64,000 bases of DNA, from the sequence record NC_100372.1; one strand, 5' to 3'. Within the stretch, counting starts at the first letter, position 1; every line of letters starts with the position of its first letter. Positions 36,088-49,614 of this stretch are shown here, piece after piece. The stretch is from a phage. A model generated the notes under the pieces. It searched no databases, was not told where the DNA came from, and saw nothing but the letters and a program-made list of their open reading frames with translations. Position numbers and translations under genes: made by a program.

Positions 36088-36507
36088 TTATAATGATTCG
36101 TATATTTCAAAAATCCGATTTGCCAGGTCGTTACGGTAGCGGAATTTTTCATCGCGCTTGATCATTAAATCCTTATAGCCGTACTCTTTAAGCACTTCAT
36201 TAACTTTATAGCGGCATACCTGCATATTATCTTGAGCGTCACCAATAAACTTGTTGCTGTGGTGCATTGCTTTAATTTCTTCTTCCAGGACCAGGGCAAC
36301 TACCCGGACCGGATCAAGCTGGTAGGCGGTAACATCTATGCGGCATTGTAGACGGCTTTTAACGTCTGCCACCGGATATACTGCAACCTCTTCCCCGTCA
36401 ACATTGACAATAATTAGTTTACCATCGATTTCGAATCCTTTCGCCGCCGGACCGTGACAAAAAGCGTTATCAAAGCTATATGCCGGATTATCAGATTTAA
36501 TGTTCAT
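36088..36507 (-). CDS. Hypothetical protein
   Basis: ORF with upstream promoter. Confidence 0.5.
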   Translation of the reverse strand: MNIKSDNPAYSFDNAFCHGPAAKGFEIDGKLIIVNVDGEEVAVYPVADVKSRLQCRIDVTAYQLDPVRVVALVLEEEIKAMHHSNKFIGDAQDNMQVCRYKVNEVLKEYGYKDLMIKRDEKFRYRNDLANRIFEIYESL

Positions 36508-36556
36508 GGTGTTTTTACCTCTTAGTTAATTTTCTTACAACTTCCCTTCAAAAAAG

Positions 36557-36585
36557 AATATAGCAAAACTGCCGATCCCTGTCAA
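36557..36585 (-). promoter_or_regulatory. Sigma70-like promoter on minus strand (TTGACA-17-TATATT)
   Basis: Reverse complement of 36557-36585. Confidence 0.45.
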
Positions 36586-36651
36586 CAAGGGATAGCATAA
36601 TTTTTATGTGATCAAGGGGCTTTATCGCCCCTGACCATGCAACCTGTTGTA

Positions 36652-36915
36652 TTATTTGTTGCTCATCCAGTTTTCCCAAGCTGCCTGATAATCTGCCTCA
36701 CTACGGCGGATCTCTTCTTGTTCTTCAAGCCGGATCTCTTCTTCCAGGTACCCCAAGATATCGGCTTTTTTGGTCTGGCGTAACATCCAATCGTCTTTTT
36801 TGCGAGTAAAGATCTTGTACGCTTTCTCGCAAACTTCTTTTTTGCTACCTTTTTGGACTTCAAGAATTCTGTAAGCCATGTACTGAACTAGTTTGAGCTG
36901 GTCAAGACGTTTCAT
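36652..36915 (-). CDS. Hypothetical protein
   Basis: ORF. Confidence 0.5.
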   Translation of the reverse strand: MKRLDQLKLVQYMAYRILEVQKGSKKEVCEKAYKIFTRKKDDWMLRQTKKADILGYLEEEIRLEEQEEIRRSEADYQAAWENWMSNK

Positions 36916-36971
36916 GATGTTTTCCTCTTTATGTGGTTCGTTTCGATTAGTTGATAATATAGCATGAATTG

Positions 36972-37190
36972 CTATTTACTCACAACAATATCGAAAACAA
37001 ATTTTTCTTTGTTGTCAAAACTCACGTATCCGATTCGACCACGCAATCCCCGAGTAGTGCCGTATTCGTAACCATCAAGGCCTTTAACCTTCCAATCCGT
37101 ACCCATTAAAACCGCATTATATTTCTGACCAACTACAAAAGCGCTACCAGTTGATTCAATGCAAACAACTTTAATTTTACGGGTTGCCAT
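36972..37190 (-). CDS. Hypothetical protein
   Basis: ORF. Confidence 0.45.
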   Translation of the reverse strand: MATRKIKVVCIESTGSAFVVGQKYNAVLMGTDWKVKGLDGYEYGTTRGLRGRIGYVSFDNKEKFVFDIVVSK

Positions 37191-37252
37191 TTTCTTTCTC
37201 TCTTTTTGTGCGGTTCTGATTAGTGGGCCTTTTGGCCCGTGTCATTATCTTA

Positions 37253-37525
37253 TTACTTACGGCGGCAGAATTCAAGCGTTTTTAATTGATAATCTTCCTC
37301 AGCCTGAAGTACAACCGCCTCGATCATTTCGTTGGCATTGTTGAAGCCATACCCTTTAGCGAACTCGTCCGCACCACCTTCGTGATCATGTTCTGCGTTC
37401 ATCGCTTCCACGAAATGGAATTCAAGATTATTGAGATAAGGGCTTGATGTTCCGTCCTCTTTTTCGATGAGATCCCAAATAGTATTAAAACGTGATTCGA
37501 CTTCTTGGTTAATCCAGCTTAACAT
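37253..37525 (-). CDS. Hypothetical acidic protein
   Basis: ORF. Confidence 0.5.
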   Translation of the reverse strand: MLSWINQEVESRFNTIWDLIEKEDGTSSPYLNNLEFHFVEAMNAEHDHEGGADEFAKGYGFNNANEMIEAVVLQAEEDYQLKTLEFCRRK

Positions 37526-37632
37526 GGCGTTTTCCTCTCTTCTGGTTGTTGTGTGGGCACTTTTGCCCCTTCAAGATAAATGTTACCCCACCGCCTGGCA
37601 GGTGTCAACGGTTTTTATAGTTTTTTATATGA

Positions 37633-37676
37633 CAGGCACCCCCGGTGATTGTCTCCCCCCGTCGCCAGGTGCCTGC
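37633..37676 (-). repeat. Conserved GC-rich element, reverse-orientation copy (core GGGAGACAATCACCGGGGGTGCC)
   Basis: Reverse complement matches the elements at 45328 and 45461. Confidence 0.6.
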
Positions 37677-37737
37677 CGTGAAACAAGTATAACAAAAAAC
37701 AGGACCATTACAAGCCCTGTTTTATGGTTTATAAAGA

Positions 37738-37929
37738 TTATATTTTTTCGCCTATATAGTCCGGTCGGTTTTTCTCTGTCATACGCTTAAGCAATTCTTG
37801 CATGTTGCTTATGGCTTGCAGTGTATCCTCTTCAAGGGATGAATCGAGATAATCAGGATCATTCTTCACCTTGCAATGGTTATGGTAACGTAGTACTGCC
37901 AGTACTTTTTTAACTTCTTCTGCTGTCAT
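37738..37929 (-). CDS. Hypothetical protein
   Basis: ORF. Confidence 0.4.
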   Translation of the reverse strand: MTAEEVKKVLAVLRYHNHCKVKNDPDYLDSSLEEDTLQAISNMQELLKRMTEKNRPDYIGEKI

Positions 37930-37937
37930 TATTCCAC

Positions 37938-38072
37938 CTAAAACAATGAGTTAATATATAACATTAGATCGCTGACTACCAGGACAACACTGATCAGCAC
38001 ATACCTAACCATAAGGGGAAAGATCGCCAACATTGCCACCACGATCCCCATGGTAATAATTATCTTTCTCAT
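37938..38072 (-). CDS. Small membrane peptide (44 aa)
   Basis: Hydrophobic ORF tightly coupled to the upstream stop; weak RBS. Confidence 0.3.
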   Translation of the reverse strand: MRKIIITMGIVVAMLAIFPLMVRYVLISVVLVVSDLMLYINSLF

Positions 38073-38074
38073 GG

Positions 38075-38359
38075 TTAACGGTTCACGTAAGTTTTCCCGT
38101 TTACGGTTATCGGCAGATCCTCCAGGTCTGGATCTTCTTTAAGGTCGCGAGCAAGTTCACCGCACCGGACGCCCTCGAATCCGTAGTACTCTGTAGTGCC
38201 GTCCTTAAAAGTTTTTGCGGCAAGGCATAGGCGATAAGTAACCCCGATTTGATTGACGGCATGGATATCAGTTAGATCTACCTCTTTTGCCAACTCTTTA
38301 GCCATTACAGGCGCATTAAGTCCAACAACCAGGGCAACCACTGCGATCATCTTTTTCAT
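38075..38359 (-). CDS. Small secreted protein
   Basis: N-terminal signal peptide MKKMIAVVALVVGLNAPVMA. Confidence 0.5.
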   Translation of the reverse strand: MKKMIAVVALVVGLNAPVMAKELAKEVDLTDIHAVNQIGVTYRLCLAAKTFKDGTTEYYGFEGVRCGELARDLKEDPDLEDLPITVNGKTYVNR

Positions 38360-38450
38360 TGTGTCTATCCTCTTTCTGCTACGTTTAAGGCGGCAGTAAC
38401 CGCCTGTTTATGCTTTGTTGGTTAATTTTCGGGTATCTGTATAAATTAAA

Positions 38451-38666
38451 CTATGCTGTACGCTCAACTATAACAACGGCTTGAGGGATCTCACCTTCAA
38501 CCACTATCAAGGCTTTTTTCTGCGTGATAGATATCTTTACCCGCTTCAGCGTGGCGGTAAAATCTTTCATTTCGTCACGTGGTGTTTTAGTGCAATACCA
38601 GATCTCAGGCTTGCCGATCTGCAAGTTGCGTAAAAATTCTGTTTTGCCTGTTTTGTTGGTGATCAT
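38451..38666 (-). CDS. Hypothetical protein
   Basis: ORF. Confidence 0.45.
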   Translation of the reverse strand: MITNKTGKTEFLRNLQIGKPEIWYCTKTPRDEMKDFTATLKRVKISITQKKALIVVEGEIPQAVVIVERTA

Positions 38667-38722
38667 TTGCCCCTCTTTATTTTTTCATAATTTCAGGAGG
38701 GGCCTTTTCGGCCCCGCCAGGC

Positions 38723-39007
38723 TTATTTATTGATGGCGTGCAACGGGAAAGGTACGCCAGGTTGATAGATAACTTTTACAACCTCATCAGGGCAAAAGAA
38801 GTTGCAAAATTCACCGCAATAGGCTTCGTCTTCTTTTAGCTCTTCATCAACATACTCAAAAAAGTAGTCGATGCTTGGATAATCCTGGCCGGGATTATAG
38901 TCGACCATTGTCAGGACTAGCTCAAGATCGTTGCGTAGGATATGCATACCAGCTTTTAAGTATTTGGCTTCCATTTCTACTACATCGCCAACGGTAACAA
39001 TAGCCAT
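38723..39007 (-). CDS. Hypothetical acidic protein
   Basis: ORF. Confidence 0.5.
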   Translation of the reverse strand: MAIVTVGDVVEMEAKYLKAGMHILRNDLELVLTMVDYNPGQDYPSIDYFFEYVDEELKEDEAYCGEFCNFFCPDEVVKVIYQPGVPFPLHAINK

Positions 39008-39215
39008 GGTTTTAACTCCTATCTATCCGGTTAATGATTGGAGGCCTCACCGCCCCCCCCGACACCCTTTATTATCCATATTGTAGGACTTGATGCAAGT
39101 ACTTCTTTAAAAAATTTTTAAGCGCCTTGGGGCCGCTGTAACGCCAAAATAATAAAGGCCATGCGGGTTGCATAGCCTTTAGATGATTATATCGCTGTAG
39201 GCCCTGCTGGGGGCC

Positions 39216-39566
39216 TTATTTTGCATTATTTCCTATATTGCCGCTACGGTACCAGCGTTTACGGTGAAAATGGTAATAATCGCCATCGGCATTGAACATC
39301 AGATGGTTTTCAATAACCAGCTTACGAAGGTGGGCCGGATCTTGTTCCATTCTTGCCAGACTCTGGCGGCTGTTACGTAAGCGGATAAATTCCATATTCA
39401 GGCCGTTGATTGCAGCATGGATGTCAAAGTAACCACCTTTGAGACGTTCACGCATGGCGTTAATCTCAACACAATATACAGATTTCTCACAAATCAAGGT
39501 ATTAGCCAGGGCGCGGACCTGGGCAAGGGGGTTAAGCTCATTAAGGTAATATAGTTTTACTTTCAT
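39216..39566 (-). CDS. Hypothetical protein
   Basis: ORF. Confidence 0.5.
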   Translation of the reverse strand: MKVKLYYLNELNPLAQVRALANTLICEKSVYCVEINAMRERLKGGYFDIHAAINGLNMEFIRLRNSRQSLARMEQDPAHLRKLVIENHLMFNADGDYYHFHRKRWYRSGNIGNNAK

Positions 39567-39583
39567 AAAATAACCTGCTGAAA

Positions 39584-39883
39584 CTAGTTTGAGAAAACAT
39601 CGTTCACAATAGCGATCACAATGCCGTTCACCTTGTCACGGTCAACAATGCACAAATCGCCATAGATCATGTGGTAGTCTGGATGATCTTTCACGGAATA
39701 ATCAATGAGTGTTTTCTTATCGTCCAGCTTACTAACTTCCATTCTCATAACGATATGAGAATCATCAAAGGCATTATTCCGAAAAGTCATAACCTGACCG
39801 CCAGGGCACCCGGTGATCTCTACTTCCACGCCGTCTACGATCTGACCATCAAAGAAATAAAGATTATTAGCCTGGATAAACAT
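39584..39883 (-). CDS. Hypothetical protein
   Basis: Start moved to the ATG 8 nt after AAGGAG. Confidence 0.5.
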   Translation of the reverse strand: MFIQANNLYFFDGQIVDGVEVEITGCPGGQVMTFRNNAFDDSHIVMRMEVSKLDDKKTLIDYSVKDHPDYHMIYGDLCIVDRDKVNGIVIAIVNDVFSN

Positions 39884-39974: not shown

Positions 39975-40175
39975 TTACAGGCCTACAATCTCTTTAATTC
40001 GTTTTACTGCTGCCTCAGCGCCTTGAGGGTAAAAATTATGGTAACCAATCACGCGGGTAATACTGATCGCCACTTGATGATCTTCATAATCGCCTTTGAA
40101 GATTTCTTGACCGTCAATCAGCACGGCAATTTTTTCTTCTTTTTTGAAGTTAATAACGCGGATATTGTTGCTCAT
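39975..40175 (-). CDS. Hypothetical protein
   Basis: Start at MSNNIRV after AAAGGAGAAACAAA RBS. Confidence 0.45.
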   Translation of the reverse strand: MSNNIRVINFKKEEKIAVLIDGQEIFKGDYEDHQVAISITRVIGYHNFYPQGAEAAVKRIKEIVGL

Positions 40176-40289: not shown

Positions 40290-40312
40290 AAGCCCCCAGG
40301 GATTGGGGGCCG
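40290..40312 (-). terminator. Intrinsic terminator candidate (GCCCCCA-loop-TGGGGGC, U-rich tail on minus strand)
   Basis: Hairpin downstream of the small gene 40316..40435. Confidence 0.4.
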
Positions 40313-40315: not shown

Positions 40316-40435
40316 TCAGTTACTTACAGCGATAAAGTACATCCCTACGCCTAACAATATTTCAAGGGCGATGATCTCAAGCCATACCGTAACACGGCGC
40401 ACCTTATCGGTGCGGGGCTTATCCTTGGGTGTCAT
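40316..40435 (-). CDS. Small membrane peptide (39 aa)
   Basis: AGGAGG...GGGGGAG RBS; hydrophobic C-terminal half. Confidence 0.35.
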   Translation of the reverse strand: MTPKDKPRTDKVRRVTVWLEIIALEILLGVGMYFIAVSN

Positions 40436-40601
40436 CGTCTCCCCCTTTCCTCCTGTTAGCAGTGACGTGGTTTGCAATGGCCCCCAGGAGTATTATCACC
40501 ACGCACATTACAAGAAAAATTATCTCTGTCGTTGTTCGATCCATTGTTATAAAATTCCTTAAGATCAGGCCTGAAAATAAAGCTTTCGTTATTGAATCCA
40601 T
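40419..40601 (-). CDS. Small membrane protein
   Basis: ORF with TM helix. Confidence 0.35.
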   Translation of the reverse strand: MDSITKALFSGLILRNFITMDRTTTEIIFLVMCVVIILLGAIANHVTANRRKGGDDDTQG

Positions 40602-40654
40602 CCCGCCAGGCGGCTGGCTTCAAATCTTCACTAAATGGATTAATTAACGTGGTA

Positions 40655-41026
40655 TTATTTAAACGGCTGGCCCACATATTTTCTATTCCTCTCAAATAAG
40701 CGATCCGCCTCAGTTAAACAAATCTCATGGGCGTGATCTCTGGTTTTAGCTTCATCGAAAACCTGTTGTGCAAGGCTGCAACGTAGGGAGACTGGAAGAT
40801 CACTATAATAGGCGTTGACAAACGTTTGAGCGTCGTACAGGTCTGAAAATACTTTACCCTTTCTATTATTCCCCTTGTCAACAATTGCAAGGATAACCAA
40901 TACAATAGTTGCAACCACTCCCAGGAAGATAGATATAATAAACCATAAAAAGGCGGATCTACCCATCTTGCCAGCGATCCAGGCGTTAAACAAGGCAACT
41001 AATATAGCCAAAATAATAAATTCCAT
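40655..41026 (-). CDS. Membrane protein (two TM helices)
   Basis: Start at MEFIIL after AAAGAGG RBS. Confidence 0.5.
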   Translation of the reverse strand: MEFIILAILVALFNAWIAGKMGRSAFLWFIISIFLGVVATIVLVILAIVDKGNNRKGKVFSDLYDAQTFVNAYYSDLPVSLRCSLAQQVFDEAKTRDHAHEICLTEADRLFERNRKYVGQPFK

Positions 41027-41093
41027 TCTATGTACCTCTTTTACAGTTCTGATTAACAATAAGGCGGCAAATATGCCGCCGCCTGTTACCTGA

Positions 41094-41474
41094 TTAAAAA
41101 TTATCGCCGTAAATCTTTCCGCTTTCTACCCATACCACCACGCGGGGCATACTATCCCACACATCTTGTTTTAGATTGAGCGAGTGCAGTTCTTCGGTGG
41201 TGCTCATACCGGGCACGGGCTGATTGTATACTGCAAAACGACCGCCTGCATAATCATAGGCCAGGGTTAAATCACACTGGATCATCTTTTTGATCATGGC
41301 ATTAAGCATAGCGTTAGCCGCGTACTGATCTCGTTTTAATGGCAACTCTTTAATCAGTTTGCGATAGTTTTCGATATGGTCGCACACTGTTTCACGCGGA
41401 AGATCTTTCATATCTTCACGGAATGTAACCAGGTTAAACATAACGGTGTCAATAGCTTTAGTAGTGTTTTTCAT
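41094..41474 (-). CDS. Hypothetical protein
   Basis: Start at MKNTTK after AAGAGGAAAAC RBS. Confidence 0.5.
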   Translation of the reverse strand: MKNTTKAIDTVMFNLVTFREDMKDLPRETVCDHIENYRKLIKELPLKRDQYAANAMLNAMIKKMIQCDLTLAYDYAGGRFAVYNQPVPGMSTTEELHSLNLKQDVWDSMPRVVVWVESGKIYGDNF

Positions 41475-41565: not shown

Positions 41566-42189
41566 TTATGAAAAACTCATCTCACCATATTCATCCACAT
41601 CAAACCGCCAATCATTGGCTTCAATAAGGCCGATCAGGTTTTCGGTAGTAAACTGTTCAAGATAGGCCTCCTCCAGGTCTACATAAACCTTGCGGGATAG
41701 CTCCCGTACCGTCTCGGTGATCAGCTCTTCCAGGTCTTCCACTTTGTTTTCTTGTTTGGCGGTCAGATCTAGCCAGGTGGTATCAATGTATCCGCTTACA
41801 GTGTTTTCATGGCTGTAATGGCTGTACTTGTCGCGTTCAACACTGGCTGATAACTCGCCATCGTGCATTGTGCCGAACAAGTGACGAATTGATCGGAACT
41901 TGGTCAGGGCCTTTACTTTACGCAAGAATTTTTCTAAATCCACGTTTTCAGCACTGATTGACGCGCCGTCACCCTGGCACCAAAAGCCGGACCAATGTAC
42001 TTCGGTATCTTCAAGGCCGTACTCTGGAAAAACTTGTTCTTTATAATATTCAATTACACTTTCTGCGAAAAAATCCTCTCCGCTGTGTTCTTCTCTTTCG
42101 CGGACCATTTCAATAGCTTTTTCTTTTTGTTCGTCGGTCAGCACGTCGAAAGATAAATTGCAACCTGTGGTAATGTTAACGGTGGTCAT
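41566..42189 (-). CDS. Hypothetical acidic protein (207 aa)
   Basis: Glu/Asp-rich, HWSGFWCQGDGASI segment; no confident family assignment. Confidence 0.55.
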   Translation of the reverse strand: MTTVNITTGCNLSFDVLTDEQKEKAIEMVREREEHSGEDFFAESVIEYYKEQVFPEYGLEDTEVHWSGFWCQGDGASISAENVDLEKFLRKVKALTKFRSIRHLFGTMHDGELSASVERDKYSHYSHENTVSGYIDTTWLDLTAKQENKVEDLEELITETVRELSRKVYVDLEEAYLEQFTTENLIGLIEANDWRFDVDEYGEMSFS

Positions 42190-42263
42190 GATATTTTCTC
42201 CTGTTTTCTTTATTAGTGGCGGGAAGTTTTCCCGCCTGTGTGTTTAATTATACTTATTGAGAT

Positions 42264-42524
42264 TTACTTGTCAACACTATTTTTTAAATTATTGTGGCGT
42301 AAAATGTTCAAGATCTCTTCAACGTCATCAACACGGCGGTAATTTTTAAACGCTACCAATTGCCCCATGATTTTAATCACTGGGCGGCCTTGCCAGTGCC
42401 CCTGGAGAAAGCGCGCCTTGACTTTATCGGTGGAGCTATCACGCCACCAAATGGCCTTGTTGTTGCAGTAGTAAAAATTATTCAGGACAACATCAACCTT
42501 ATCAAAATTTTTTAATTTACGCAT
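42264..42524 (-). CDS. Hypothetical protein
   Basis: ORF with upstream promoter. Confidence 0.5.
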   Translation of the reverse strand: MRKLKNFDKVDVVLNNFYYCNNKAIWWRDSSTDKVKARFLQGHWQGRPVIKIMGQLVAFKNYRRVDDVEEILNILRHNNLKNSVDK

Positions 42525-42556: not shown

Positions 42557-42584
42557 AGTATAGCTAACCTGTTTAAGATGTCAA
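42557..42584 (-). promoter_or_regulatory. Sigma70-like promoter on minus strand (TTGACA-16-TATACT)
   Basis: Reverse complement of 42557-42584. Confidence 0.45.
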
Positions 42585-42730: not shown

Positions 42731-42757
42731 ATAAAAAGCCCCGCACAATGGCGGGGC
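42731..42757 (-). terminator. Intrinsic terminator (GCCCCGC-loop-GCGGGGC with TTTTTATTT on minus strand)
   Basis: Strong hairpin plus U-run immediately after gene 42766..42963. Confidence 0.65.
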
Positions 42758-42765: not shown

Positions 42766-42963
42766 TTATTTGTCTTTATGGCGGTATCGTTCTGCCTGTC
42801 GTTCACGTTCCAAAAGTAGGCCAGGCAATTTACGATCATAATGATTTCGCCAGATCTTTCCAAATCTTTTTGGCTTATTTAGTTTATTGTTACGCTGGCG
42901 GCGTTCCGGCAGCTCTTCGGAATCATGAGATCGCTTTACAATCTTCTCAAAATTAATCTTCAT
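42766..42963 (-). CDS. Hypothetical basic protein
   Basis: Start at MKINFEK after AGGGGG RBS. Confidence 0.45.
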   Translation of the reverse strand: MKINFEKIVKRSHDSEELPERRQRNNKLNKPKRFGKIWRNHYDRKLPGLLLERERQAERYRHKDK

Positions 42964-43306
42964 ATATTCCCCCCTTGCTAACTTCAATATTTGCCTGAAT
43001 AGCCCGGATACGGCGCTTTATAACTTCCTGGTCTGTGTGATCGTATCCCCAAAAGTCTACAATTTTTGCGCCCCCCGCCTCCAGGCGGTATAGTGTTTCC
43101 TGCATCTTGTAAGCCGGGACCGGTCGCGGTGTTACTTGGTCACCTTCTTTATTTTTATACTTTATAATATAATCTTCGTTATCGTTGAATGCCCAAAATG
43201 GATATTTTGCAAGGGCGTTGCTTTCTTTTTCGTTCTTAGATTGGATCTTGTTTACAATTAAAGCCGTAGCAATAGCGCCGATAATAAAACTTGCACCGCT
43301 GATCAT
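42953..43306 (-). CDS. Membrane-anchored protein
   Basis: Start at MISGAS after GAAAGGAGAA RBS; N-terminal TM helix. Confidence 0.5.
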   Translation of the reverse strand: MISGASFIIGAIATALIVNKIQSKNEKESNALAKYPFWAFNDNEDYIIKYKNKEGDQVTPRPVPAYKMQETLYRLEAGGAKIVDFWGYDHTDQEVIKRRIRAIQANIEVSKGGIYED

Positions 43307-43381: not shown

Positions 43382-43627
43382 CTATTTCACAATGCCCACA
43401 AAACAGATCCCGCCTTCCCCGACGTAGGCAATATCGGTCACTTTGTAGTCGGTTAAGATCTGTTTATTCAGATCATTAATAAAATCGGTCATTGCGTTGG
43501 TGTAGTTGTCTTCCATGTCTAGGGAATAATCCCAGGTGTAAACCTTTTTACGTCCGAAGCCTTTAACAACAACACGGGCACCTTTGGTGTTGGTTGGTGC
43601 ATAGTATTTAGTGATTAGTGCTGCCAT
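43382..43627 (-). CDS. Hypothetical protein
   Basis: ORF. Confidence 0.5.
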   Translation of the reverse strand: MAALITKYYAPTNTKGARVVVKGFGRKKVYTWDYSLDMEDNYTNAMTDFINDLNKQILTDYKVTDIAYVGEGGICFVGIVK

Positions 43628-43716: not shown

Positions 43717-44121
43717 TTAGTAAGTTTTCAGTACTTTACCGTCCAACCTGTCAAGCTGGATCTCGATAGCTGCAGAAAACCTATTGTACACCACGTCGCC
43801 CATGGAATCCAACCAGTCTATGACGTTATACACCTGCTCTTTGTTCTTGCAGGTCCGGATCCGTTTCATGATGTAAGCCGGATCAATATTGGTACTTTCG
43901 TTGGTGTTCCCCTGTACCTGATTTGCCGTATTAGTTACATCTTTAATGGCCTTTACCACCACCTGGAAGGGCTTTAAGGTGCCTTTTGCGTTCATCTCAC
44001 GCGCTTTTGCGGCGCGGTTGTTATATGTTACACAACGGCGGCAAATGTTCACCAAATGCATGTCAATAATTTTTTCATCGTTTGCCAGTTCGTTCATGAT
44101 GCGGCGTACGTTCTTATTCAT
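43717..44121 (-). CDS. Hypothetical protein
   Basis: ORF. Confidence 0.5.
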   Translation of the reverse strand: MNKNVRRIMNELANDEKIIDMHLVNICRRCVTYNNRAAKAREMNAKGTLKPFQVVVKAIKDVTNTANQVQGNTNESTNIDPAYIMKRIRTCKNKEQVYNVIDWLDSMGDVVYNRFSAAIEIQLDRLDGKVLKTY

Positions 44122-44165: not shown

Positions 44166-44203
44166 GACTAGTTTACTTGAATTTTGCAGCGTGTCAACAA
44201 TTT

Positions 44204-44602
44204 TTATTCGTGGGCGCATGTTACAATGTGCTTTTTATAGCCCAGGTGGTTAGCAAGTGCCGACAAAAACTCTTCTTCATAGATCCAGCCGTTGGCAGTG
44301 ATCCCCATAGCATTTAATGCGCTCTCAAGTGCTGCATTAGCTTTATCGTAACCGTGACCGCTCGCCTTCCCGCCAGTATAACCGTACTTATTGTTCTTGT
44401 TGTCGTGAATCCAAAAAACGCAGTATTGAGTGTTCCCGCTGGCGGCGGCATAATACCGGATCTCAGCTACTTCGTGCAAATTATTGTCATCGTCCAGGCC
44501 CACCAGATTATAAGCCTTGTAAAATCCACGATCACGGCGGCAGTTCTTGACATCAGAAAAAGAAAAGTCCGCATTATCAAAATTAAAGGTAGTGGTTTTC
44601 AT
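44204..44602 (-). CDS. Hypothetical protein
   Basis: ORF. Confidence 0.5.
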   Translation of the reverse strand: MKTTTFNFDNADFSFSDVKNCRRDRGFYKAYNLVGLDDDNNLHEVAEIRYYAAASGNTQYCVFWIHDNKNNKYGYTGGKASGHGYDKANAALESALNAMGITANGWIYEEEFLSALANHLGYKKHIVTCAHE

Positions 44603-44666
44603 GATTTTATCCTCTTAGTGTCTTTTGTGCTTTTAGTGTATTTGGTGTCGGACTGTATGTCAATAC

Positions 44667-44864
44667 TTATTTTTTATTAAACCAGTGGTTGATCTGGCCT
44701 TTTGTCAGGGCGCAACGATTAAGCTGTTGCCGGGTATAGCTCTGACCGCGACGGAATTTATAAAGGCCTTGCCCGTTGTTGATGGTTACGTCCACCTGGC
44801 AAATCATTTGATCGGTGACGGCCTGGCGAGTGTTGCGACGTACTTTAATTCCGTAGGCGTTCAT
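44667..44864 (-). CDS. Hypothetical basic protein
   Basis: ORF. Confidence 0.45.
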   Translation of the reverse strand: MNAYGIKVRRNTRQAVTDQMICQVDVTINNGQGLYKFRRGQSYTRQQLNRCALTKGQINHWFNKK

Positions 44865-44947
44865 GATTTTTATCCTCTCTGTTAATTAGTGTGGTGTTGT
44901 TCACCTTGCGAGGATAAGAATAACAGAACTATCCGAGCTGTCAACCA

Positions 44948-45121
44948 TTAGTTAGAATTATTTTTTGGGCAGAATTCTCCAGCCGCCGCCCCTGCCAGGT
45001 TAACCATCATTTTTTCGTACTCTTCTTTATGTTCCAACGCTCCCGCCATAGCCTTTTCAACCAGGGCGATAGCCTCAGCGTCATTAATCGCTACATTTCC
45101 AGGGATCCTATTACCTTTCAT
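44948..45121 (-). CDS. Small protein (57 aa), below the ORF-track size cutoff
   Basis: Hand-translated MKGNRIPGNVAINDAEAIALVEKAMAGALEHKEEYEKMMVNLAGAAAGEFCPKNNSN with GAGGAGG RBS. Confidence 0.4.
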   Translation of the reverse strand: MKGNRIPGNVAINDAEAIALVEKAMAGALEHKEEYEKMMVNLAGAAAGEFCPKNNSN

Positions 45122-45327
45122 TTTTGTACCTCCTCTTCAATTGTTACCTGCCCTGTAGCATAGGCCTACCAGGTTTGCAAGCTTTCACTCTCTCCTACCT
45201 GGTCAGTCAGGTCCTGCCAGGCTGGCCCCGCCAGGTTGCAGCGGTTGGTGTATTATGTTAGAAAAAATTTTTGAAGAAGTGTTGACAGCGGCCCCGCCAG
45301 GTGGCACAATATACCTATCGAAAGGAC

Positions 45328-45398
45328 GGCAGGCACCGGTGACGGGGGAGACAACCACCGGGGATGGGCGCTGCATAAAATGAGAACGGTTATCATTA
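45328..45398 (+). repeat. Conserved module copy 1: GC-rich element (GGCAGGCACC..GGGAGACAACCACCGGGG) followed by GAGAACGGTTATCATT
   Basis: Read directly; a second copy lies 135 bp downstream and a third element in reverse orientation at 37633. Confidence 0.6.
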
Positions 45399-45460
45399 TC
45401 ATTTAAAAATTTATGCAAAAAATCCTTGCTTTCTTTGTCCTGTGTGATACTATAATAACA

Positions 45461-45533
45461 AGCCGGGGCAACAGGGGCCGGGAGACAATCACCGGGGGTG
45501 CCCGTTATTCTGCAAACGAGAATGATTATCATT
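45461..45533 (+). repeat. Conserved module copy 2: GGGAGACAATCACCGGGGGTGCC followed by GAGAATGATTATCATT
   Basis: 21-bp core identical to the reverse complement of 37641-37661. Confidence 0.6.
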
Positions 45534-45663
45534 CAAAATTCTAAATGAGAACTTTTCGCATTTCATAAATTTAGTTAGCATGCTAATTACCTACCGTGAC
45601 AATTCTATATAAAATAATACCTCCTTAAATATTTCCATATACAAATTTTAAAAATCCATTTCC

Positions 45664-45830
45664 GAAAACGAAAAATCGATTTCGTCCCCAAAAATTTCAG
45701 GTCGAGCTCCGGAACGATTTCCAGAAAATCTGATTCAGAAAACGAAAAACAGATCGAGTACTAAGAAATTTATCGAGAAAAATTTTCAGAAAATTCAATC
45801 TTTGAAACGAAAAACAGATCGAGTACTGAG
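45664..45830. repeat. Three degenerate tandem repeats (about 70 bp) with core GAAAACGAAAAACAGATCGAGTACT
   Basis: Cores at about 45664, 45738, 45804. Confidence 0.55.
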
Positions 45831-46138
45831 AGAGATGTATCAAAACCTGCTGAGAATAATGGGTTTATTGTTATAAAGGGTCAAAGGTAAGCTGGGAAAG
45901 TTCCGGTAGAAGGGTGAGAGTATGTGCGGAAAATCTGGAATAGTAACTTAAAGTACGGTGCGAACGATAGAATGAGCAGCACATCTTATCGCGCCTGTCT
46001 TGAAAAATCCATTTTAGTTTTCGATCCATTTTCTGATTTTCTAAGAATTTTAAAATATCCGGCTAGGTAAAATATCAAAAGGAGGAAATCCATTTTAGAA
46101 ATCCTCCTTATACTTGATGTGCCAGGGATTTTCAAGTA

Positions 46139-46468
46139 TCAACTGTCTTTGTTTTTAGGCTTGTGCATACGTAGAGGTATGGTCTTTATAACATTCCATC
46201 TGCCCAACCCCTCCCAGTTCCAATTGTGAGCGTGATACCCAGTTATGCATGCACTGCTGGCGTGATCATAAGCATAAGAGAACGCTATGCGAACCAGGTG
46301 GGGCCAGTCCCTCCACGGCTGTGGACCGTAAGCCTTTCTCCAACACCGACACAAACTAATTGTCTCAAGAATAGGTAGAATAACAAATCCATATACCGCC
46401 ACCAAAATGGTAAGAGCAATGATTGTCAGGAATACATACCCTGCAGTTGAAATAATGATCTCTGTCAT
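46139..46468 (-). CDS. Membrane protein
   Basis: N-terminal TM helices. Confidence 0.5.
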   Translation of the reverse strand: MTEIIISTAGYVFLTIIALTILVAVYGFVILPILETISLCRCWRKAYGPQPWRDWPHLVRIAFSYAYDHASSACITGYHAHNWNWEGLGRWNVIKTIPLRMHKPKNKDS

Positions 46469-46668
46469 TTGTCATCCCCTTTCTTACGGATATAGATGTG
46501 AGAGCCTGCTTGTACATAAATTTCCCGACCATCTTCTGCAAAGATGTGGAATACACGGTCGCCTTCGTATTCAATACGGGATATCTTCATAACGGTCTTC
46601 CCACCCGGAATGCGGATCTCATCACCCACAGCAATGTTCCATGCAGATTTAAGCTTAAACATCTGCAC
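46465..46668 (-). CDS. Hypothetical protein
   Basis: Coupled ORF. Confidence 0.45.
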   Translation of the reverse strand: MQMFKLKSAWNIAVGDEIRIPGGKTVMKISRIEYEGDRVFHIFAEDGREIYVQAGSHIYIRKKGDDK

Positions 46669-46900
46669 CCCCCTTTGGGAGCTCTAACTCTGGCATAGCC
46701 ATATACGCCACGACAGGGTTGTAATCAAAGTAGAAATGACCGTTAATTATCCCAGTTTTGTGGGCATAGTCACCAGATCCTGCAAGAACAATCTCGCAAA
46801 CTCCGAAATCCACCTCGCCATTCTCATCTGCCATGGCTACAATATACTTTCCTAGAGGCATGTTTTTAACGCCGTCTACAAATGTCCACCCTTTGTTCAT
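46655..46900 (-). CDS. Hypothetical protein
   Basis: ORF. Confidence 0.5.
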   Translation of the reverse strand: MNKGWTFVDGVKNMPLGKYIVAMADENGEVDFGVCEIVLAGSGDYAHKTGIINGHFYFDYNPVVAYMAMPELELPKGGADV

Positions 46901-46920
46901 ACTTTATCTCCTGCACTTTC

Positions 46921-47253
46921 TTAAGGTAACCAGTAAACAATTTCGCCTTTCAGTTCCATGTCGTTACCGACATAGATTTTCCAGCCATCCATTTTAGCCA
47001 CTGCAGGAGTGAAGCCCGTAGAACCACTAACCTCTTTCCAAGTCCCGTAGTCAGGTTGCCAGATATAGAATCCACCTCCCTTGTCCCATGCTCCATATAC
47101 CACATCGAGCAGGTTGCCCATTGCAACAATAGTAGGCCGTGGGAATAATACATCTACAGATGCGCCACAATTTCGGGTAGATTTTAAATTACAATCCCAA
47201 AAGATGTCTGCCAGTGTGGCGGCGATAGCTTTACGTCTTTCTAATGTTACCAT
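46921..47253 (-). CDS. Hypothetical protein
   Basis: ORF. Confidence 0.5.
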   Translation of the reverse strand: MVTLERRKAIAATLADIFWDCNLKSTRNCGASVDVLFPRPTIVAMGNLLDVVYGAWDKGGGFYIWQPDYGTWKEVSGSTGFTPAVAKMDGWKIYVGNDMELKGEIVYWLP

Positions 47254-47263
47254 GGCACGATAC

Positions 47264-47455
47264 TCACTTGTTGTTAAGAAGTTCTAAAACTTTCTGTTTT
47301 ACTTTATCAAGGTCTGTTGATTCAAAAATTGTGCGATATCCCCAACTTTGCCCATAGGAATAACTGCAATCCCCGTAACACCATTGCTCAACTTGATAGT
47401 ATTCAAGGAATGGGTGCTGTCTGACTATGATACCGTCTCGATTAAAAATTACCAT
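47264..47455 (-). CDS. Hypothetical protein
   Basis: ORF. Confidence 0.45.
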   Translation of the reverse strand: MVIFNRDGIIVRQHPFLEYYQVEQWCYGDCSYSYGQSWGYRTIFESTDLDKVKQKVLELLNNK

Positions 47456-47518
47456 AATTTATCCCTCTCTGCTAGTCTATGTTTGTATTATATACTGCAG
47501 TTTTCAGATGTCAACCTT

Positions 47519-47713
47519 TTACAGGTTACTCCAGTATAATCGGCATTTACACTTCGGGCAATGAGGTTCTTTTATGTAATAACCATCAGTCTTTGGAACA
47601 CTTTTTGGTGCAGTTTTAAGATTGTACCGAGTAAAGCACCGGAAGCAGGTTACCTCTCCTACCTGTTGATCGTTTATCCACTCACCAGAGTAAAGCTCTT
47701 TCTTGTTTCTCAT
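47519..47713 (-). CDS. Small zinc-ribbon protein
   Basis: CFRCF...CPKCKC; start at MRNKK after GGGGAGAG RBS. Confidence 0.45.
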   Translation of the reverse strand: MRNKKELYSGEWINDQQVGEVTCFRCFTRYNLKTAPKSVPKTDGYYIKEPHCPKCKCRLYWSNL

Positions 47714-47738
47714 AATTCTCTCCCCAATCCTCTGCAAT

Positions 47739-47910
47739 CTTATACCAGAATCTCCAGCCAGAAAGCACACGGGAACACTTTGAGGATTGAATCTTTACTA
47801 GGCTCGGAAGTTCTTTTTCCGTAGGGCAGGTAGAAATACCCTCCTGCAGATTCAAACATGGCTCCTTCTGTTGTATCTATCACAGCTAGAATTAAGATTT
47901 TAGTCTCCAT
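47739..47910 (-). CDS. Small protein (56 aa), below the ORF-track cutoff
   Basis: Hand-translated METKILILAVIDTTEGAMFESAGGYFYLPYGKRTSEPSKDSILKVFPCAFWLEILV with AGGGGAG RBS. Confidence 0.35.
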
Positions 47911-47964
47911 AGTGCTCCCCTGTCTTAATCGTTGTGGTGACTATACCACCTTAAAATATAGCTG

Positions 47965-48423
47965 TCAACACTCTTTGTACTCCACCACGATAATATCTAT
48001 ATCAAAAGTGGCAAGGTTAATAATGTCCTCTACATGTTCCCACTTCAAACCGCCTATGCCGCACCCGATCTTAGGGATGTAGAATGGTAAAATCGACCCC
48101 TCAAATACTTCATTGACTCGCTCAAAGCCTTTCAGTATTGAGAAATATTCAGCATTAGGCCCTGGGTAGAACTGAGTATACAGATTTATTCCGTAGACAA
48201 TACCTCTCGGAGATAAGTGCTCCCAGCGGGAGAACGCGCCCAGTTTACTTAGGCAACCGTGCATAGTCATTTTATCAGCTTCCAATGCTTGAGGGAACTC
48301 ACGGGCAATCTGTTTTGCTACACCCTTACCCATTGTGTGGAAGCAGTTACAACCGTGGATCAGGTGACCATCACCGCTCTTAAAAAGGGAGATTAAATCT
48401 CCCTCTACAGTATCAATAATCAC
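47965..48423 (-). CDS. Macro-domain protein (ADP-ribose binding/hydrolase-like)
   Basis: HGCNCFHTMGKGVAKQI resembles the macro-domain glycine-rich ADP-ribose pocket; C-terminal IPKIGCGIGGL resembles the second conserved loop; start placed at GTG after GAGGAG RBS. Confidence 0.5.
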   Translation of the reverse strand: MIIDTVEGDLISLFKSGDGHLIHGCNCFHTMGKGVAKQIAREFPQALEADKMTMHGCLSKLGAFSRWEHLSPRGIVYGINLYTQFYPGPNAEYFSILKGFERVNEVFEGSILPFYIPKIGCGIGGLKWEHVEDIINLATFDIDIIVVEYKEC

Positions 48424-48838
48424 GATATTCCAGCTCCTCTTCCACAATTTCAAAAAACTCAGTCCAGCACTGTGGCATATTGGAGTTACCGAAGTGGCTT
48501 TCATAGTAAAGGTTTTTACCGCTCGGAAGATAGAAATCTGTTACCTCATAAAATCCACAATCGTCGCACTCTCCCTCTTCAAACTTGGCCTTAACCTTAA
48601 TGCCGAGGAAGGTGAAAAGTTTATGGATATCTTCGGTCTCGAACTCCCAATTAATGTTGTTTTCCGCATCGGTGTAAAACTGGATCAGTAGGCCATCATC
48701 CATTTTTCCAAAATATTCTGTGAAGTAGCTTCCTTCCCAGAAGTCTTTGTGACAAATAATATCCATGCGCTTGCCCATAATAAAGGTGTGGGCGTTTCGT
48801 GCATCGTCACGAATCAGTTTTGGCATTTCATAAATCAT
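48413..48838 (-). CDS. Hypothetical acidic protein
   Basis: ORF. Confidence 0.5.
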   Translation of the reverse strand: MIYEMPKLIRDDARNAHTFIMGKRMDIICHKDFWEGSYFTEYFGKMDDGLLIQFYTDAENNINWEFETEDIHKLFTFLGIKVKAKFEEGECDDCGFYEVTDFYLPSGKNLYYESHFGNSNMPQCWTEFFEIVEEELEYRDY

Positions 48839-48903
48839 CGTAGTTCTCCAGGATCAATAGGTGGTGCTACAGGAAGATCATAAAACATGGCGATCACATT
48901 CTC

Positions 48904-49101
48904 TTACGCAGGAATTGCTTCAAACAGGCCGTTATCGATACCATCCTTCAAGTAAAGATTATACTCTATGTCAGTATCTGTGTAAAGGGCAGCATCTAGC
49001 ATTCTATCTGTGAGTCCATCCATTGGGTGGAGAAACCACCACCCACGCCAGTCAAAGTAACAACCTGGTGCATCTTCTCTCACACGGATTCGATAAATCA
49101 T
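48904..49101 (-). CDS. Hypothetical protein
   Basis: AGGAGG RBS. Confidence 0.45.
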   Translation of the reverse strand: MIYRIRVREDAPGCYFDWRGWWFLHPMDGLTDRMLDAALYTDTDIEYNLYLKDGIDNGLFEAIPA

Positions 49102-49170
49102 GGGCAGTGGCCTCCTGTTAGTTACACATCCCAGTTTTCTTCGTTCATCACATCCTCCAGCTCAACAAGG

Positions 49171-49202
49171 TTATAATTGCACACCTTACAACCCGTGTCA
49201 AC
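49171..49202 (-). promoter_or_regulatory. Sigma70-like promoter on minus strand (TTGACA-17-AATTAT)
   Basis: Perfect -35, 4/6 -10. Confidence 0.35.
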
Positions 49203-49614
49203 AGAAAACTTCAACAAATTCTTCCACAGTTTTAATGTCATGGGAAAAAGGTTTGCGGCTATAACGGGCAATAGCACTGTCAACCACCGCCCGGTACTCC
49301 AAATCTTCAGAATATTTCATGAAGCATTGCAACGTCTCTGGACAGATAGCCAGATAGCTCCACCACCCCTCTTCAGATTGGTAGTCAAATCCCATACTCT
49401 CTAGCCACGAAGCGTATACACCTGCACCTTCCAGCCAGTGAGTATTTTCATCAAGAAACTTGTTCACAGTCATGTGAGCTTCTAAGCATTTATCCAGCTC
49501 TTTTCCGTTAACCAGCCACGCACTGACAGTGGCGCATCCAAGATCCACAGATTGAGCTGATAGATTGTATTGGTCATAGTTCTCAGGTTTAACAATGATA
49601 TCTTCTAATGTCAT
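49198..49614 (-). CDS. Hypothetical protein
   Basis: ORF. Confidence 0.5.
   Translation of the reverse strand: MTLEDIIVKPENYDQYNLSAQSVDLGCATVSAWLVNGKELDKCLEAHMTVNKFLDENTHWLEGAGVYASWLESMGFDYQSEEGWWSYLAICPETLQCFMKYSEDLEYRAVVDSAIARYSRKPFSHDIKTVEEFVEVFC

Follow-up and report, generated by a model that had tools for sequence, protein, structure and literature searches.

A putative early, largely accessory block of small genes in an rV5-like coliphage, with a predicted anti-DarTG2 macrodomain and a conserved noncoding island

The small early gene blocks of T4 and the pre-early and early regions of T5 consist of small genes that are mostly dispensable in laboratory hosts, are read from strong host-type promoters, and include scattered anti-defense factors. 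For T4, the same is reported in the HIDEN-SEQ preprint (10.1101/2025.11.20.689424). The block of small leftward genes described here, positions 36088-49614 of a 64,000-nucleotide stretch of phage DNA (sequence record NC_100372.1; the whole stretch is termed the window), shares with these regions its dozens of small genes and its host-type promoters. Compared with T4, only one gene (g36, a relative of tk.4) is held in common, and most of the families in the block are confined to Vequintavirus.

The DNA comes from a Vequintavirus, that is, an rV5-like coliphage. In a megablast search of 50,697 phage records, 222 match the block; these are mostly Escherichia phages, and those opened belong to the Vequintavirinae (rV5-like). 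The best matches, which cover 94-99% of the block at about 91-92% identity, are O157 typing phage 14, JES2013, navn, EdH4 and Alma. The closest described counterparts are rV5 gp164 to about gp209 and bas54_0089-0134 of phage Bas54 (MaxBurger, MZ501093.1), which are collinear with the window in gene order at about 88-95% nucleotide identity and have the same open reading frames (ORFs) without relatives (ORFans), sigma-70-type promoters, and the same mid-block gap. In the rV5 genome paper (Kropinski et al. 2013, PMC3606486), the arm is part of a transcription unit termed ‘10-1-238-164’ and consists largely of ORFans; the paper also mentions a ‘non-coding’ box and 33 sigma-70-like promoters genome-wide. 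The block is already known, being annotated as hypothetical proteins in more than 200 public genomes (rV5 gp164 onward; Bas54 bas54_0089-0134), and it has been screened by transposon insertion sequencing (Tn-seq), so it is not an unrecognized feature.

The reading that best accounts for these data, and that is probably correct, is that the block forms the far end of a long leftward pre-replicative arm and holds small, mostly accessory genes together with a noncoding cis-element, with g36 as a likely anti-DarTG2 factor. In the proposed mechanism, host RNA polymerase would read the block early from many short sigma-70 units, often closed by an intrinsic terminator, and most products would act as accessory host modulators whose value depends on the strain infected. 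The g36 protein would neutralize DarTG2 by stripping DarT2-made ADP-ribose from thymidines of the phage DNA, and g20, a putatively membrane-anchored protein translationally coupled to the T7 gp1.1-like g19, would be essential. The island at 45122-46138 would interrupt the array as a cis-element composed of iteron-like repeats, an AT-rich tract, and tandem operators before a promoter-like sequence.

The position of the block follows from the layout of the window. Rightward genes stop at about 33.6 kb and leftward genes stop at 36088, and the block is therefore the far end of a long leftward arm, which begins beyond the DNA polymerase gene (54094-56871). The base-composition skew changes sign near 33-35 kb of the window.

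For the gene content, all leftward ORFs were listed with candidate starts and ribosome-binding sites, and the model was fixed at 39 ORFs, g01-g39 (Table 1). Each was compared with nine Vequintavirus relatives by the Nei-Gojobori ratio of nonsynonymous to synonymous substitution (dN/dS), the number of variable sites per codon position, the same measures in two wrong frames, and the presence of frame-breaking indels or stops. These tests support 36 leftward protein genes of 39-207 amino acids (aa; median 86.5), of which 33 are shorter than 140 aa and 23 shorter than 100 aa, while three ORFs (g26, g27 and g28) are rejected as genes. The dense leftward array proposed in the first-pass annotation is real; its count of about 40 genes was too high, with 36 supported and about 1 kb at 45122-46138 noncoding. 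That annotation had let its proposal stand or fall with conservation in relatives, and 33 ORFs are indeed conserved, with dN/dS of 0.01-0.30 and a marked third-position bias. Variable sites at codon positions one, two and three number, for example, 54, 2 and 201 in g39, 16, 1 and 130 in g30, and 6, 2 and 71 in g34; third-position changes exceed second-position changes 3- to 100-fold, and frame-breaking indels are almost nil. In the wrong frames of the same ORFs, dN/dS is mostly close to 1 or higher (0.24-39 overall, with the lowest values at the weakest calls).

The remaining three genes evolve faster and are intact in every relative: g14 (dN/dS 0.65), g31 (0.47) and g25 (0.40). In g25 the N-terminal indels sum to 3 nucleotides (nt), a multiple of three. 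In g14 the variable sites number 64, 37 and 41, so that the first position exceeds the third and third-position bias is lacking, with the ORF intact in 9/9 relatives; g14 is either under diversifying selection or not translated in that frame. The two genes found by hand in the first pass hold up, since 47740-47910 (g35) exists in relatives at a dN/dS of 0.08, and 44948-45121 (g25) exists in relatives with an AGGAGG site and corresponds to bas54_0103. Also borne out are its many strong ribosome-binding sites, as Shine-Dalgarno motifs precede most starts, and its signal peptides or transmembrane helices, as hydrophobic N-terminal, C-terminal or signal-like segments occur in six products (g06, g07, g13, g15, g20 and g29). 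All 36 products have full-length matches, each to a PHROG family of its own, and these families are all labeled ‘unknown function’ except that of the macrodomain, which is labeled ‘phosphatase’. Most of the block (g09, g11-g24 and g29-g39) is present in 9/9 relatives, and the gene content of the promoter-distal end (g01-g10) varies among them.

Promoter and terminator placement gives the block its likely timing. The coding strand has 12 sigma-70-type sites with at least 10 of 12 consensus positions and the opposite strand has 2, compared to 2.5 ± 1.6 (maximum 8) in shuffled sequence. Ten of the 12 coding-strand sites are intergenic, in DNA that makes up a quarter of the region, and lie 30-72 nt upstream of a start codon. 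In addition, seven terminator-like hairpins occur just 3′ of stop codons. This excess of promoters, their placement and the terminators mean that the block is organized as many short units that the host RNA polymerase could read without modification; early genes are expected to be laid out in this way, and the block would accordingly be among the genes that the host enzyme reads early in infection.

A fitness map of a close relative is available from the HIDEN-SEQ preprint (10.1101/2025.11.20.689424), in which Tn-seq was performed on Bas54; bas54_0089-0134 were mapped onto g39-g01. In E. coli K-12, 39 of the 46 Bas54 coding sequences of the block were classed as non-essential, with 80-100% of their TA sites hit (10.1101/2025.11.20.689424). 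Three of the seven others lie in the noncoding island, and bas54_0110, the equivalent of g20, is the only essential protein gene. In the uropathogenic isolate CFE311, seven Bas54 genes were significantly depleted (10.1101/2025.11.20.689424), six of which have equivalents in the window (Table 1). The Tn-seq check proposed in the first-pass annotation had in this way already been published on Bas54, and its outcome is what is expected of an accessory island, namely dispensability in a defense-poor host and a conditional requirement elsewhere. The phenotype of the g22 equivalent in CFE311 is clean because both of its neighbors are unaffected. The g22 gene, and separately g01-g03 together with g07-g08, are candidate counter-defense or host-adaptation factors. 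The suggestion that the block holds host-takeover and anti-defense functions stands for g36 by homology and for the six genes needed in CFE311; it does not extend to the essential g20, to the 33 of 36 genes that have no functional family, or to a broad arsenal. In the copy of Extended Data Table 8 of the preprint that was examined, sheets S6 and S7 (K-12 versus CFE303 and K-12 versus CFE311) have the same content, and each gives the CFE311 file as its input.

The anti-defense genes of Bas54 that the preprint names, bas54_0063 and bas54_0140, which alone are matched to the predicted system DS-28, lie outside the block (10.1101/2025.11.20.689424). The latter, a gene of unknown function, is reported to be required to overcome DS-28, and alignment with Bas54 places its expected orthologue at about 32300-32620 on the plus strand of the window, just outside the block.

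The assignment of g36 to the Tk.4/AdfM family is, on sequence comparison, among the most useful new points. The 152-aa product matches Pfam Macro (E 9.7e-7, 29.2 bits against a cutoff of 22, profile positions 1-118) and PADLOC DarG (9.8e-13). Its match to NCBIfam antitoxin_DarG (NF048014; 1.3e-10) scores 41.1 bits, far below the equivalog cutoff of 250, and covers only positions 4-143 of the 338-position model; g36 is a stand-alone macrodomain that lacks the DarT-binding C-terminal domain of DarG. The best match in the PDB is 5m3i (4.9e-7), and the nearest solved relatives are DarG macrodomains. A tblastn search identifies the T-even gene tk.4 as homologous to g36 over the full length, with 41% identity to T4 Tk.4 over 153 columns (E 7e-43) and 44% to PP01 Tk.4. 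Both g36 and T4 Tk.4 are stand-alone macrodomains of about 150 aa with the common motifs HGCNCFHTMG.G, NLYTQ..PGPN and IP(K/R)IG.GI, the second of which is also found in PP01 Tk.4. The active-site Asn of DarG (N22 of T. aquaticus) is kept in g36, where the Asn of HGCNC aligns with that of VNTVNC in M. tuberculosis DarG, and it is invariant in 10 orthologues.

T4 tk.4, named AdfM, was the single gene required on cells expressing DarTG2 (HIDEN-SEQ preprint, 10.1101/2025.11.20.689424), and a chimallivirus macrodomain AdfM removes DarT2-made ADP-ribose from DNA (PMC13309987). Because of its homology to T4 Tk.4, g36 is filed under the Tk.4/AdfM family and predicted to have anti-DarTG2 activity; most likely it would remove DarT2-made ADP-ribose from thymidines in phage DNA and so neutralize DarTG2. 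In the chimallivirus AdfM (PhiKZ gp104), N23 and K78 are described as putative active-site residues, whereas g36 has Gln at the lysine position.

Several observations weigh against parts of this account. The catalytic lysine of DarG (T. aquaticus K80, PTK motif) is replaced by Gln (YTQ) in all 10 Vequintavirus orthologues of g36. This would argue against DarG-like chemistry, but the same Gln stands at the DarG/TARG1 catalytic lysine position in T4 Tk.4, the full-length homologue, as well as in PP01 Tk.4. The Bas54 orthologue of g36, bas54_0092, was hit at 31/31 TA sites in K-12 and gave no phenotype in K-12 or CFE311. Bas54 is a relative and not the phage of the window; its alignment takes in 81% of the block, at about 92% identity, and the data were released as a preprint. 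Across bas54_0123-0129, depletion in CFE311 is even and moderate and could be partly a polar or locus effect. As for timing, the literature search found no transcriptome or proteome for the phage group, early expression is deduced from promoter type alone, and the rV5 authors describe sigma-70-like promoters across the whole genome (PMC3606486). Profile and structure searches give 33 of the 36 genes no family with a function. Finally, the Vequintavirinae are exceptionally sensitive to restriction-modification systems (BASEL paper), and the block is therefore not a broad anti-defense arsenal.

The mid-block gap, termed the island here, corresponds to bas54_0100-0102 in Bas54, and its DNA rather than its ORFs is conserved. 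The island ORFs g26 and g27 have dN/dS of 1.10 and 0.82 and no codon-position bias (variable sites 40, 55 and 50 in g26), and g28 has stops or frameshifts in 6/8 relatives. Similarly, Alma has a frameshift and MiataMamis two stops in bas54_0102, an internal stop interrupts bas54_0101 in the window and in two other genomes, and bas54_0100 lacks its start codon in 5/10 genomes. The island is not coding, because its ORFs are broken in relatives, their dN/dS is near 1, and codon-position bias is absent. The core at 45290-45810 is nevertheless 91-100% identical in 10 genomes, compared to a synonymous divergence (dS) of 0.2-0.6 in neighboring genes. In relatives, this stretch of about 1 kb is either left without annotation or assigned mini-ORFs that do not agree with one another. 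The evidence indicates that the ‘essential small genes’ bas54_0100-0102 of Bas54 are probably pieces of a conserved noncoding element. In phage SYGMH1, a 576-bp gene annotated ‘ATP-dependent Clp protease’ is inserted right beside the island, a gain of cargo.

By a sensitive blastn search, phages of Klebsiella, Cronobacter, Pectobacterium, Serratia, Raoultella, Enterobacter and Salmonella retain a 76-100-nt core that is 80-86% identical. In four other genera, represented by Certrevirus CR8, Seunavirus 4MG, Serratia phage Kashira and Phapecoctavirus ukendt (the last of a different subfamily), the core lies within about 1-1.4 kb without annotated leftward genes. As judged from such comparisons, the island is conserved across two phage subfamilies. 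The architecture common to these genera has four parts: GATATTT repeats; three iteron-like units (CTCGATCnnTTTTTC) with A/T tracts; an AT-rich segment; and two to four tandem AATGAGAAnnnTTCTCATT palindromes followed by a promoter-like sequence. The same motif triplet as in the island iterons is found in CR8, 4MG, Kashira and the Klebsiella phage, and the Klebsiella Mydovirus locus has the island sequence motifs in an annotation that is unreliable. In the window, the AT-rich segment adjoins the iteron-like repeats at 45660-45541 and has 72-80% A+T. Of the three palindromic operator-like copies, the second does not vary among 10 Vequintaviruses and is conserved in five other genera, and its TTGAAT could be a -35 element. 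Sites with at most four mismatches to the palindrome number six in the 64 kb of the window against 0.62 expected, three of them in the island and three at 34588-34740, and all six fall in two noncoding regions.

The second of these regions, 33604-36087, is a 2.5-kb gene-free junction with an A+T content of about 61%, where the rightward and leftward arms converge. It contains five to six copies of CGTAAACAGT, four copies of TGACACAAT and other direct repeats. The Bas54 equivalent of the junction, between bas54_0134 and 0135, was free of insertions (10.1101/2025.11.20.689424). The islands of Kashira and ukendt contain a conserved rightward ORF of 88 aa (54% identical, motif LGWQGGTVHQVA), which may regulate the locus in these genera. 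As a candidate regulator here it was rejected, having no relative anywhere in the window.

Tandem direct repeats and an AT-rich unwinding segment, which mark iteron origins, are both present in the island. The lambda ori, the T7 primary origin and T4 oriF/oriG are iteron-containing origins that also depend on transcription. The island likewise joins three direct repeats, A/T tracts, an AT-rich segment and a promoter-like sequence with palindromic operators, and it appears to be indispensable, since its Bas54 counterpart is hit by almost no transposon insertions. It differs from them in that no initiator gene was identified beside it, and in that a second insertion-free region, at 33.6-36.1 kb, has the same operator motif. 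Most likely, the island would act at the level of DNA as a cis-element, either a replication origin or an essential transcription-control region. A more specific proposal is tentative: the island and the 33.6-36.1 kb junction may form the replication origin or master control locus of the Vequintavirinae and Stephanstirmvirinae, acting through a dimeric DNA-binding protein at a Fur-family-like 7-1-7 site (TGAGAAT-n-ATTCTCA), with bas54_0101 and bas54_0102 as mis-annotated pieces of the cis-element.

The island might instead encode one or more small regulatory RNAs or degenerate tRNA-like genes, so that the insertion-free phenotype would reflect loss of an essential RNA. GC-rich segments do follow the promoter-like sequence behind each operator, six tRNAs are reported for rV5 (PMC3606486), and a Klebsiella phage record (OY978796.1) annotates tRNA-Met, tRNA-Ile and tRNA-Lys at the homologous place. 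These tRNA calls do not survive inspection, as ARAGORN finds no tRNA in either the window or the Klebsiella locus and the coding sequences of that record are mostly partial or pseudo. Across positions 8472-13547 of OY978796.1, the annotation coordinates look unreliable in general. The 76-nt cross-genus core, which coincides with the annotated tRNA-Met, was rejected as a tRNA, being ARAGORN-negative and without tRNA features. Rfam searches of the whole window at the gathering score, and of the island and five related loci at a permissive E value, gave no real match; the one weak match (Lst thermometer) scored 20 bits against a cutoff of 126. A conserved RNA hairpin downstream of the operator was also rejected, since the RNAalifold consensus of nine sequences, drawn from six genera, has no more than 3 pairs (-1.9 kcal/mol). 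Conservation lies in sequence motifs, direct repeats and palindromes, features typical of DNA that binds proteins, and an RNA product is an unlikely explanation of the island.

Somewhat less likely again is that the palindromes are true Fur boxes, which would make expression or replication of the locus responsive to iron through the host Fur protein. Two copies match the E. coli Fur consensus GATAATGATAATCATTATC at 16/19 and 15/19 positions, where a site with at most three mismatches is expected 0.01 times per window and copy 3 is the only one in the window; the copy in 4MG reads TTGAATGATAATCATTATC, also 16/19. The cross-genus unit AATGAGAAnnnTTCTCATT, however, is a palindrome of TGAGAAT and not of TGATAAT, and every copy examined except that of 4MG has TTCTC at the place where Fur boxes have TTATC. 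Fur binding is a minority possibility because the cross-genus consensus has TGAGAAT half-sites. These half-sites and the retention of TTCTC suggest that the site, of the Fur-family-like 7-1-7 type, is bound by a dimeric protein dedicated to it and probably encoded by the phage.

For the block as a whole, the alternative to a mostly accessory array is that it consists mainly of core machinery for replication, transcription switching or lysis that lacks recognizable domains. The DNA polymerase and primase genes are upstream of the block on the same strand, g09, g11-g24 and g29-g39 occur in all nine relatives, g20 is essential, the equivalents of g33 and g01 have fitness effects in K-12, and g15 is annotated as a putative holin. 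It is nonetheless improbable that core functions dominate, given the 39 of 46 Bas54 coding sequences that tolerate insertions, the differences in gene content among close relatives, and the several genes that matter only in one clinical isolate. The g15 product has two hydrophobic segments, but its equivalent in Bas54 is non-essential, with insertions in 27/28 TA sites, and g15 would for this reason not be the sole or an indispensable holin. Least credible of all is that the block is over-called and its tiny ORFs are mostly chance frames in AT-rich spacer DNA: g26-g28 and the bas54_0100/0101 equivalents do fail every coding test, g14 lacks third-position bias, and annotators' counts range from 35 to 58 features over the same stretch in relatives, but the codon-level constraint on 33 ORFs in the annotated frame, with few frame-breaking indels and Shine-Dalgarno motifs at most genes, dismisses it for all but those parts.

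Relatives of the essential g20 form only 7 protein clusters, every one of them Vequintavirus-like. Its reading frame and that of g19 share 11 nt (42953-42963), and the two occur as a single 179-aa fusion in one public genome, P0049; the overlap and the fusion suggest translational coupling and a common function. The g19 product belongs to Pfam PF08200 Phage_1_1 (E 9.5e-10, 39.2 bits against a cutoff of 21, profile positions 1-32 of 40), and a literature search found no function for this T7 gp1.1 family. The g34 product belongs to PF23903 Phage_zn_bind_2 (E 1.6e-21, 76.4 bits against a cutoff of 27) and has two CxxC pairs (CFRC...CPKC). Both g19 and g34 fall in families of unknown function. When all products were searched against Pfam, NCBIfam, PADLOC and PDB sequences, only g19, g34 and g36 had matches. 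The homology and structure check proposed at first pass yielded in this way a function by homology for g36 and families for g19 and g34, and no functional family for the other 33 genes.

The host-specific candidate g22 is a lineage-specific ORFan with 4 representatives among 1.84 billion proteins, and word-index and exhaustive HMMER searches gave no informative distant relatives. Its AlphaFold2 model, with a predicted template modeling score of 0.37, suggests a long helix at the N terminus, joined by a disordered linker to a small helical domain at the C terminus. For g17, the largest gene of the block, the predicted fold is confident and no solved structure resembles the model.

Gene content differs in both directions between the window and its relatives. 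The window lacks bas54_0107 and 0108 (between the g21 and g22 equivalents), the four genes bas54_0122-0125 (between the g08 and g09 equivalents) and the homing endonuclease bas54_0088, all of which are present in Bas54, and it has g03 and g10, which are absent from several relatives. A CFE303 phenotype is reported in the preprint for bas54_0108. The mild K-12 effects of bas54_0125 and bas54_0130 have no counterpart in the gene model of the window, and the g36 macrodomain allele of the window is only 79% identical to that of Bas54.

The small genes do not end at 49614, where the first-pass annotation had closed the block. They run on along the minus strand (49677-54094) as a 408-aa gene and then about 10 small genes up to the DNA polymerase gene at about 54.1 kb. 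The 408-aa gene is the equivalent of bas54_0087, which is called essential, and the roughly 10 small genes are the equivalents of bas54_0077-0086. A homing endonuclease or endonuclease VII gene stands beside the 408-aa gene in Bas54 and several relatives and is absent from the window. In addition, 17-19 GenBank records named ‘Campylobacter phage’ (MG065672, MG065635, MG065644, MG065650 and others; host Campylobacter jejuni) contain the present rV5-like E. coli block at about 87-88% identity; the names or hosts of those records are probably wrong.

Table 1. Features of the block and island, with equivalents in Bas54. Transposon results are those of Bas54: TA sites hit and class in K-12, log2 fold change (log2FC) in CFE311. 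RBS, ribosome-binding site.
Feature	Position	Strand	Bas54 equivalent	Description	Bas54 transposon result
g01	36088..36507	-	bas54_0134	139 aa; GAGG RBS; dN/dS 0.11; phrog_12277	K-12 26/35, Intermediate; CFE311 log2FC -2.88, q below 1e-5
g02	36652..36915	-	bas54_0133	87 aa; dN/dS 0.03	Non-essential in K-12; CFE311 log2FC -5.18, q 0.003
g03	36972..37190	-	bas54_0132	72 aa; in 2/9 relatives only; dN/dS 0.30 (2 relatives)	CFE311 log2FC -4.34, q 0.003
g04	37253..37525	-	bas54_0131	90 aa; dN/dS 0.06	Non-essential
g05	37738..37929	-	bas54_0129	63 aa; dN/dS 0.13	
g06	37938..38072	-	bas54_0128	44 aa; hydrophobic full-length mini-protein; phrog_16005; dN/dS 0.23 (one full-length relative)	
g07	38075..38359	-	bas54_0127	94 aa; N-terminal signal-peptide-like segment MKKMIAVVALVVGLNAPVMA...; dN/dS 0.07	CFE311 log2FC -2.24, q 0.025
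g08	38451..38666	-	bas54_0126	71 aa; dN/dS 0.09	CFE311 log2FC -2.34, q 0.018
(absent from window)			bas54_0123		CFE311 log2FC -2.85
g09	38723..39007	-	bas54_0121	94 aa; acidic; AGGAG RBS; dN/dS 0.04	
g10	39216..39566	-	bas54_0120	116 aa; in 6/9 relatives; dN/dS 0.25	
g11	39584..39883	-	bas54_0119	99 aa; AGGAG RBS; dN/dS 0.15	
g12	39975..40175	-	bas54_0118	66 aa; AGGAG RBS; dN/dS 0.07	
g13	40316..40435	-	bas54_0117	39 aa; C-terminal hydrophobic helix; dN/dS 0.27	
g14	40456..40677	-	bas54_0116	73 aa; low complexity; coding status uncertain; dN/dS 0.65	
g15	40655..41026	-	bas54_0115	123 aa; two N-terminal transmembrane segments; annotated ‘putative holin’; dN/dS 0.06	27/28
g16	41094..41474	-	bas54_0114	126 aa; dN/dS 0.03	
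g17	41566..42189	-	bas54_0113	207 aa; acidic; largest gene of block	
g18	42264..42524	-	bas54_0112	86 aa; basic; AGGAG RBS; dN/dS 0.07	
g19	42766..42963	-	bas54_0111	65 aa; very basic; T7 gp1.1-like; dN/dS 0.02	
g20	42953..43306	-	bas54_0110	117 aa; N-terminal membrane anchor; dN/dS 0.09	K-12 9/31, Essential
g21	43382..43627	-	bas54_0109	81 aa; AGGAG RBS; dN/dS 0.09	
g22	43717..44121	-	bas54_0106	134 aa; basic; dN/dS 0.11	CFE311 log2FC -3.18, q below 1e-5
g23	44204..44602	-	bas54_0105	132 aa; dN/dS 0.09	
g24	44667..44864	-	bas54_0104	65 aa; basic; dN/dS 0.26	
g25	44948..45121	-	bas54_0103	57 aa; AGGAGG RBS, spacing 7; phrog_21957; dN/dS 0.40	K-12 12/14, Intermediate
g26	45203..45532	-	bas54_0102	rejected as gene; inside island	K-12 5/15, Strong fitness defect
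(inside island)			bas54_0101		K-12 0/11, Essential
(inside island)			bas54_0100		K-12 1/3, Not classified
g27	45871..46029	-		rejected as gene; inside island	
g28	45986..46093	-		rejected as gene; inside island	
g29	46139..46468	-	bas54_0099	109 aa; N-terminal hydrophobic region; dN/dS 0.10	
g30	46465..46662	-	bas54_0098	65 aa; dN/dS 0.03	
g31	46655..46900	-	bas54_0097	81 aa; fast-evolving; AGGAG RBS; dN/dS 0.47; variable sites 53, 31, 73	
g32	46921..47253	-	bas54_0096	110 aa; dN/dS 0.16	
g33	47264..47455	-	bas54_0095	63 aa; dN/dS 0.10	K-12 11/15, Reduced fitness
g34	47519..47713	-	bas54_0094	64 aa; zinc ribbon; dN/dS 0.01, most constrained in block	
g35	47740..47910	-	bas54_0093	56 aa; dN/dS 0.08; phrog_15268	
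g36	47965..48423	-	bas54_0092	152 aa; stand-alone macrodomain; GTG start; dN/dS 0.19	K-12 31/31
g37	48413..48838	-	bas54_0091	141 aa; acidic; dN/dS 0.07	
g38	48904..49101	-	bas54_0090	65 aa; acidic; AGGAGG RBS; dN/dS 0.02	
g39	49198..49614	-	bas54_0089	138 aa; acidic; dN/dS 0.03	
Noncoding island	45122..46138	.	stretch of bas54_0100-0102	ORFs not conserved as ORFs, DNA conserved	
Three iteron-like direct repeats	45651..45831	-		CTCGATCnnTTTTTCGTTT then A/T tracts; repeat families D1, D2; units of 65-74 nt	
Palindromic operator-like site, copy 1	45544..45562	.		AATGCGAAAAGTTCTCATT; 3 mismatches to AATGAGAATnATTCTCATT	
Palindromic operator-like site, copy 2	45515..45536	.		TTGAATGATAATCATTCTCGTT; 2 mismatches to operator consensus; Fur-box 15/19	
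Palindromic operator-like site, copy 3	45379..45400	.		GATAATGATAACCGTTCTCATT; 3 mismatches to operator consensus; Fur-box 16/19	
Sigma-70 promoter upstream of g01	36557..36585	-		11/12, TG-extended	
Sigma-70 promoter upstream of g04	37580..37608	-		10/12	
Sigma-70 promoter upstream of g17	42247..42274	-		12/12, TTGACA-16-TATAAT	
Sigma-70 promoter upstream of g18	42557..42584	-		11/12	
Sigma-70 promoter upstream of g22	44170..44197	-		10/12	
Sigma-70 promoter upstream of g23	44635..44663	-		10/12	
Sigma-70 promoter upstream of g24	44917..44944	-		10/12	
Sigma-70 promoter upstream of g33	47487..47514	-		12/12, TTGACA-16-TATAAT	
Sigma-70 promoter upstream of g35	47940..47968	-		11/12, TG-extended	
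Sigma-70 promoter upstream of g38	49173..49201	-		10/12	
Terminator-like hairpin 3′ of g01	36050..36069	-		end of leftward arm	
Terminator-like hairpin 3′ of g05	37696..37723	-			
Terminator-like hairpin 3′ of g10	39153..39181	-			
Terminator-like hairpin 3′ of g13	40291..40311	-			
Terminator-like hairpin 3′ of g16	41062..41084	-			
Terminator-like hairpin directly 3′ of g19	42738..42757	-			
Intrinsic terminator-like hairpin upstream of g39	49640..49661	-			

Most of the functional dark matter of large virulent phages resides in blocks of this kind, and rV5-like phages are common, have broad host ranges and are candidates for therapy and biocontrol. The present analysis leaves the picture of phage biology unchanged and instead narrows the experiments. 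The triage leaves a checked gene list, a macrodomain (g36) that is directly testable against DarTG2, a short list of host-specific genes (g22, g01-g03 and g07-g08), and an essential ORFan (g20). It also corrects the annotation, in that the insertion-free stretch of three small Bas54 genes is a conserved noncoding element, and points to a possible origin or control region.

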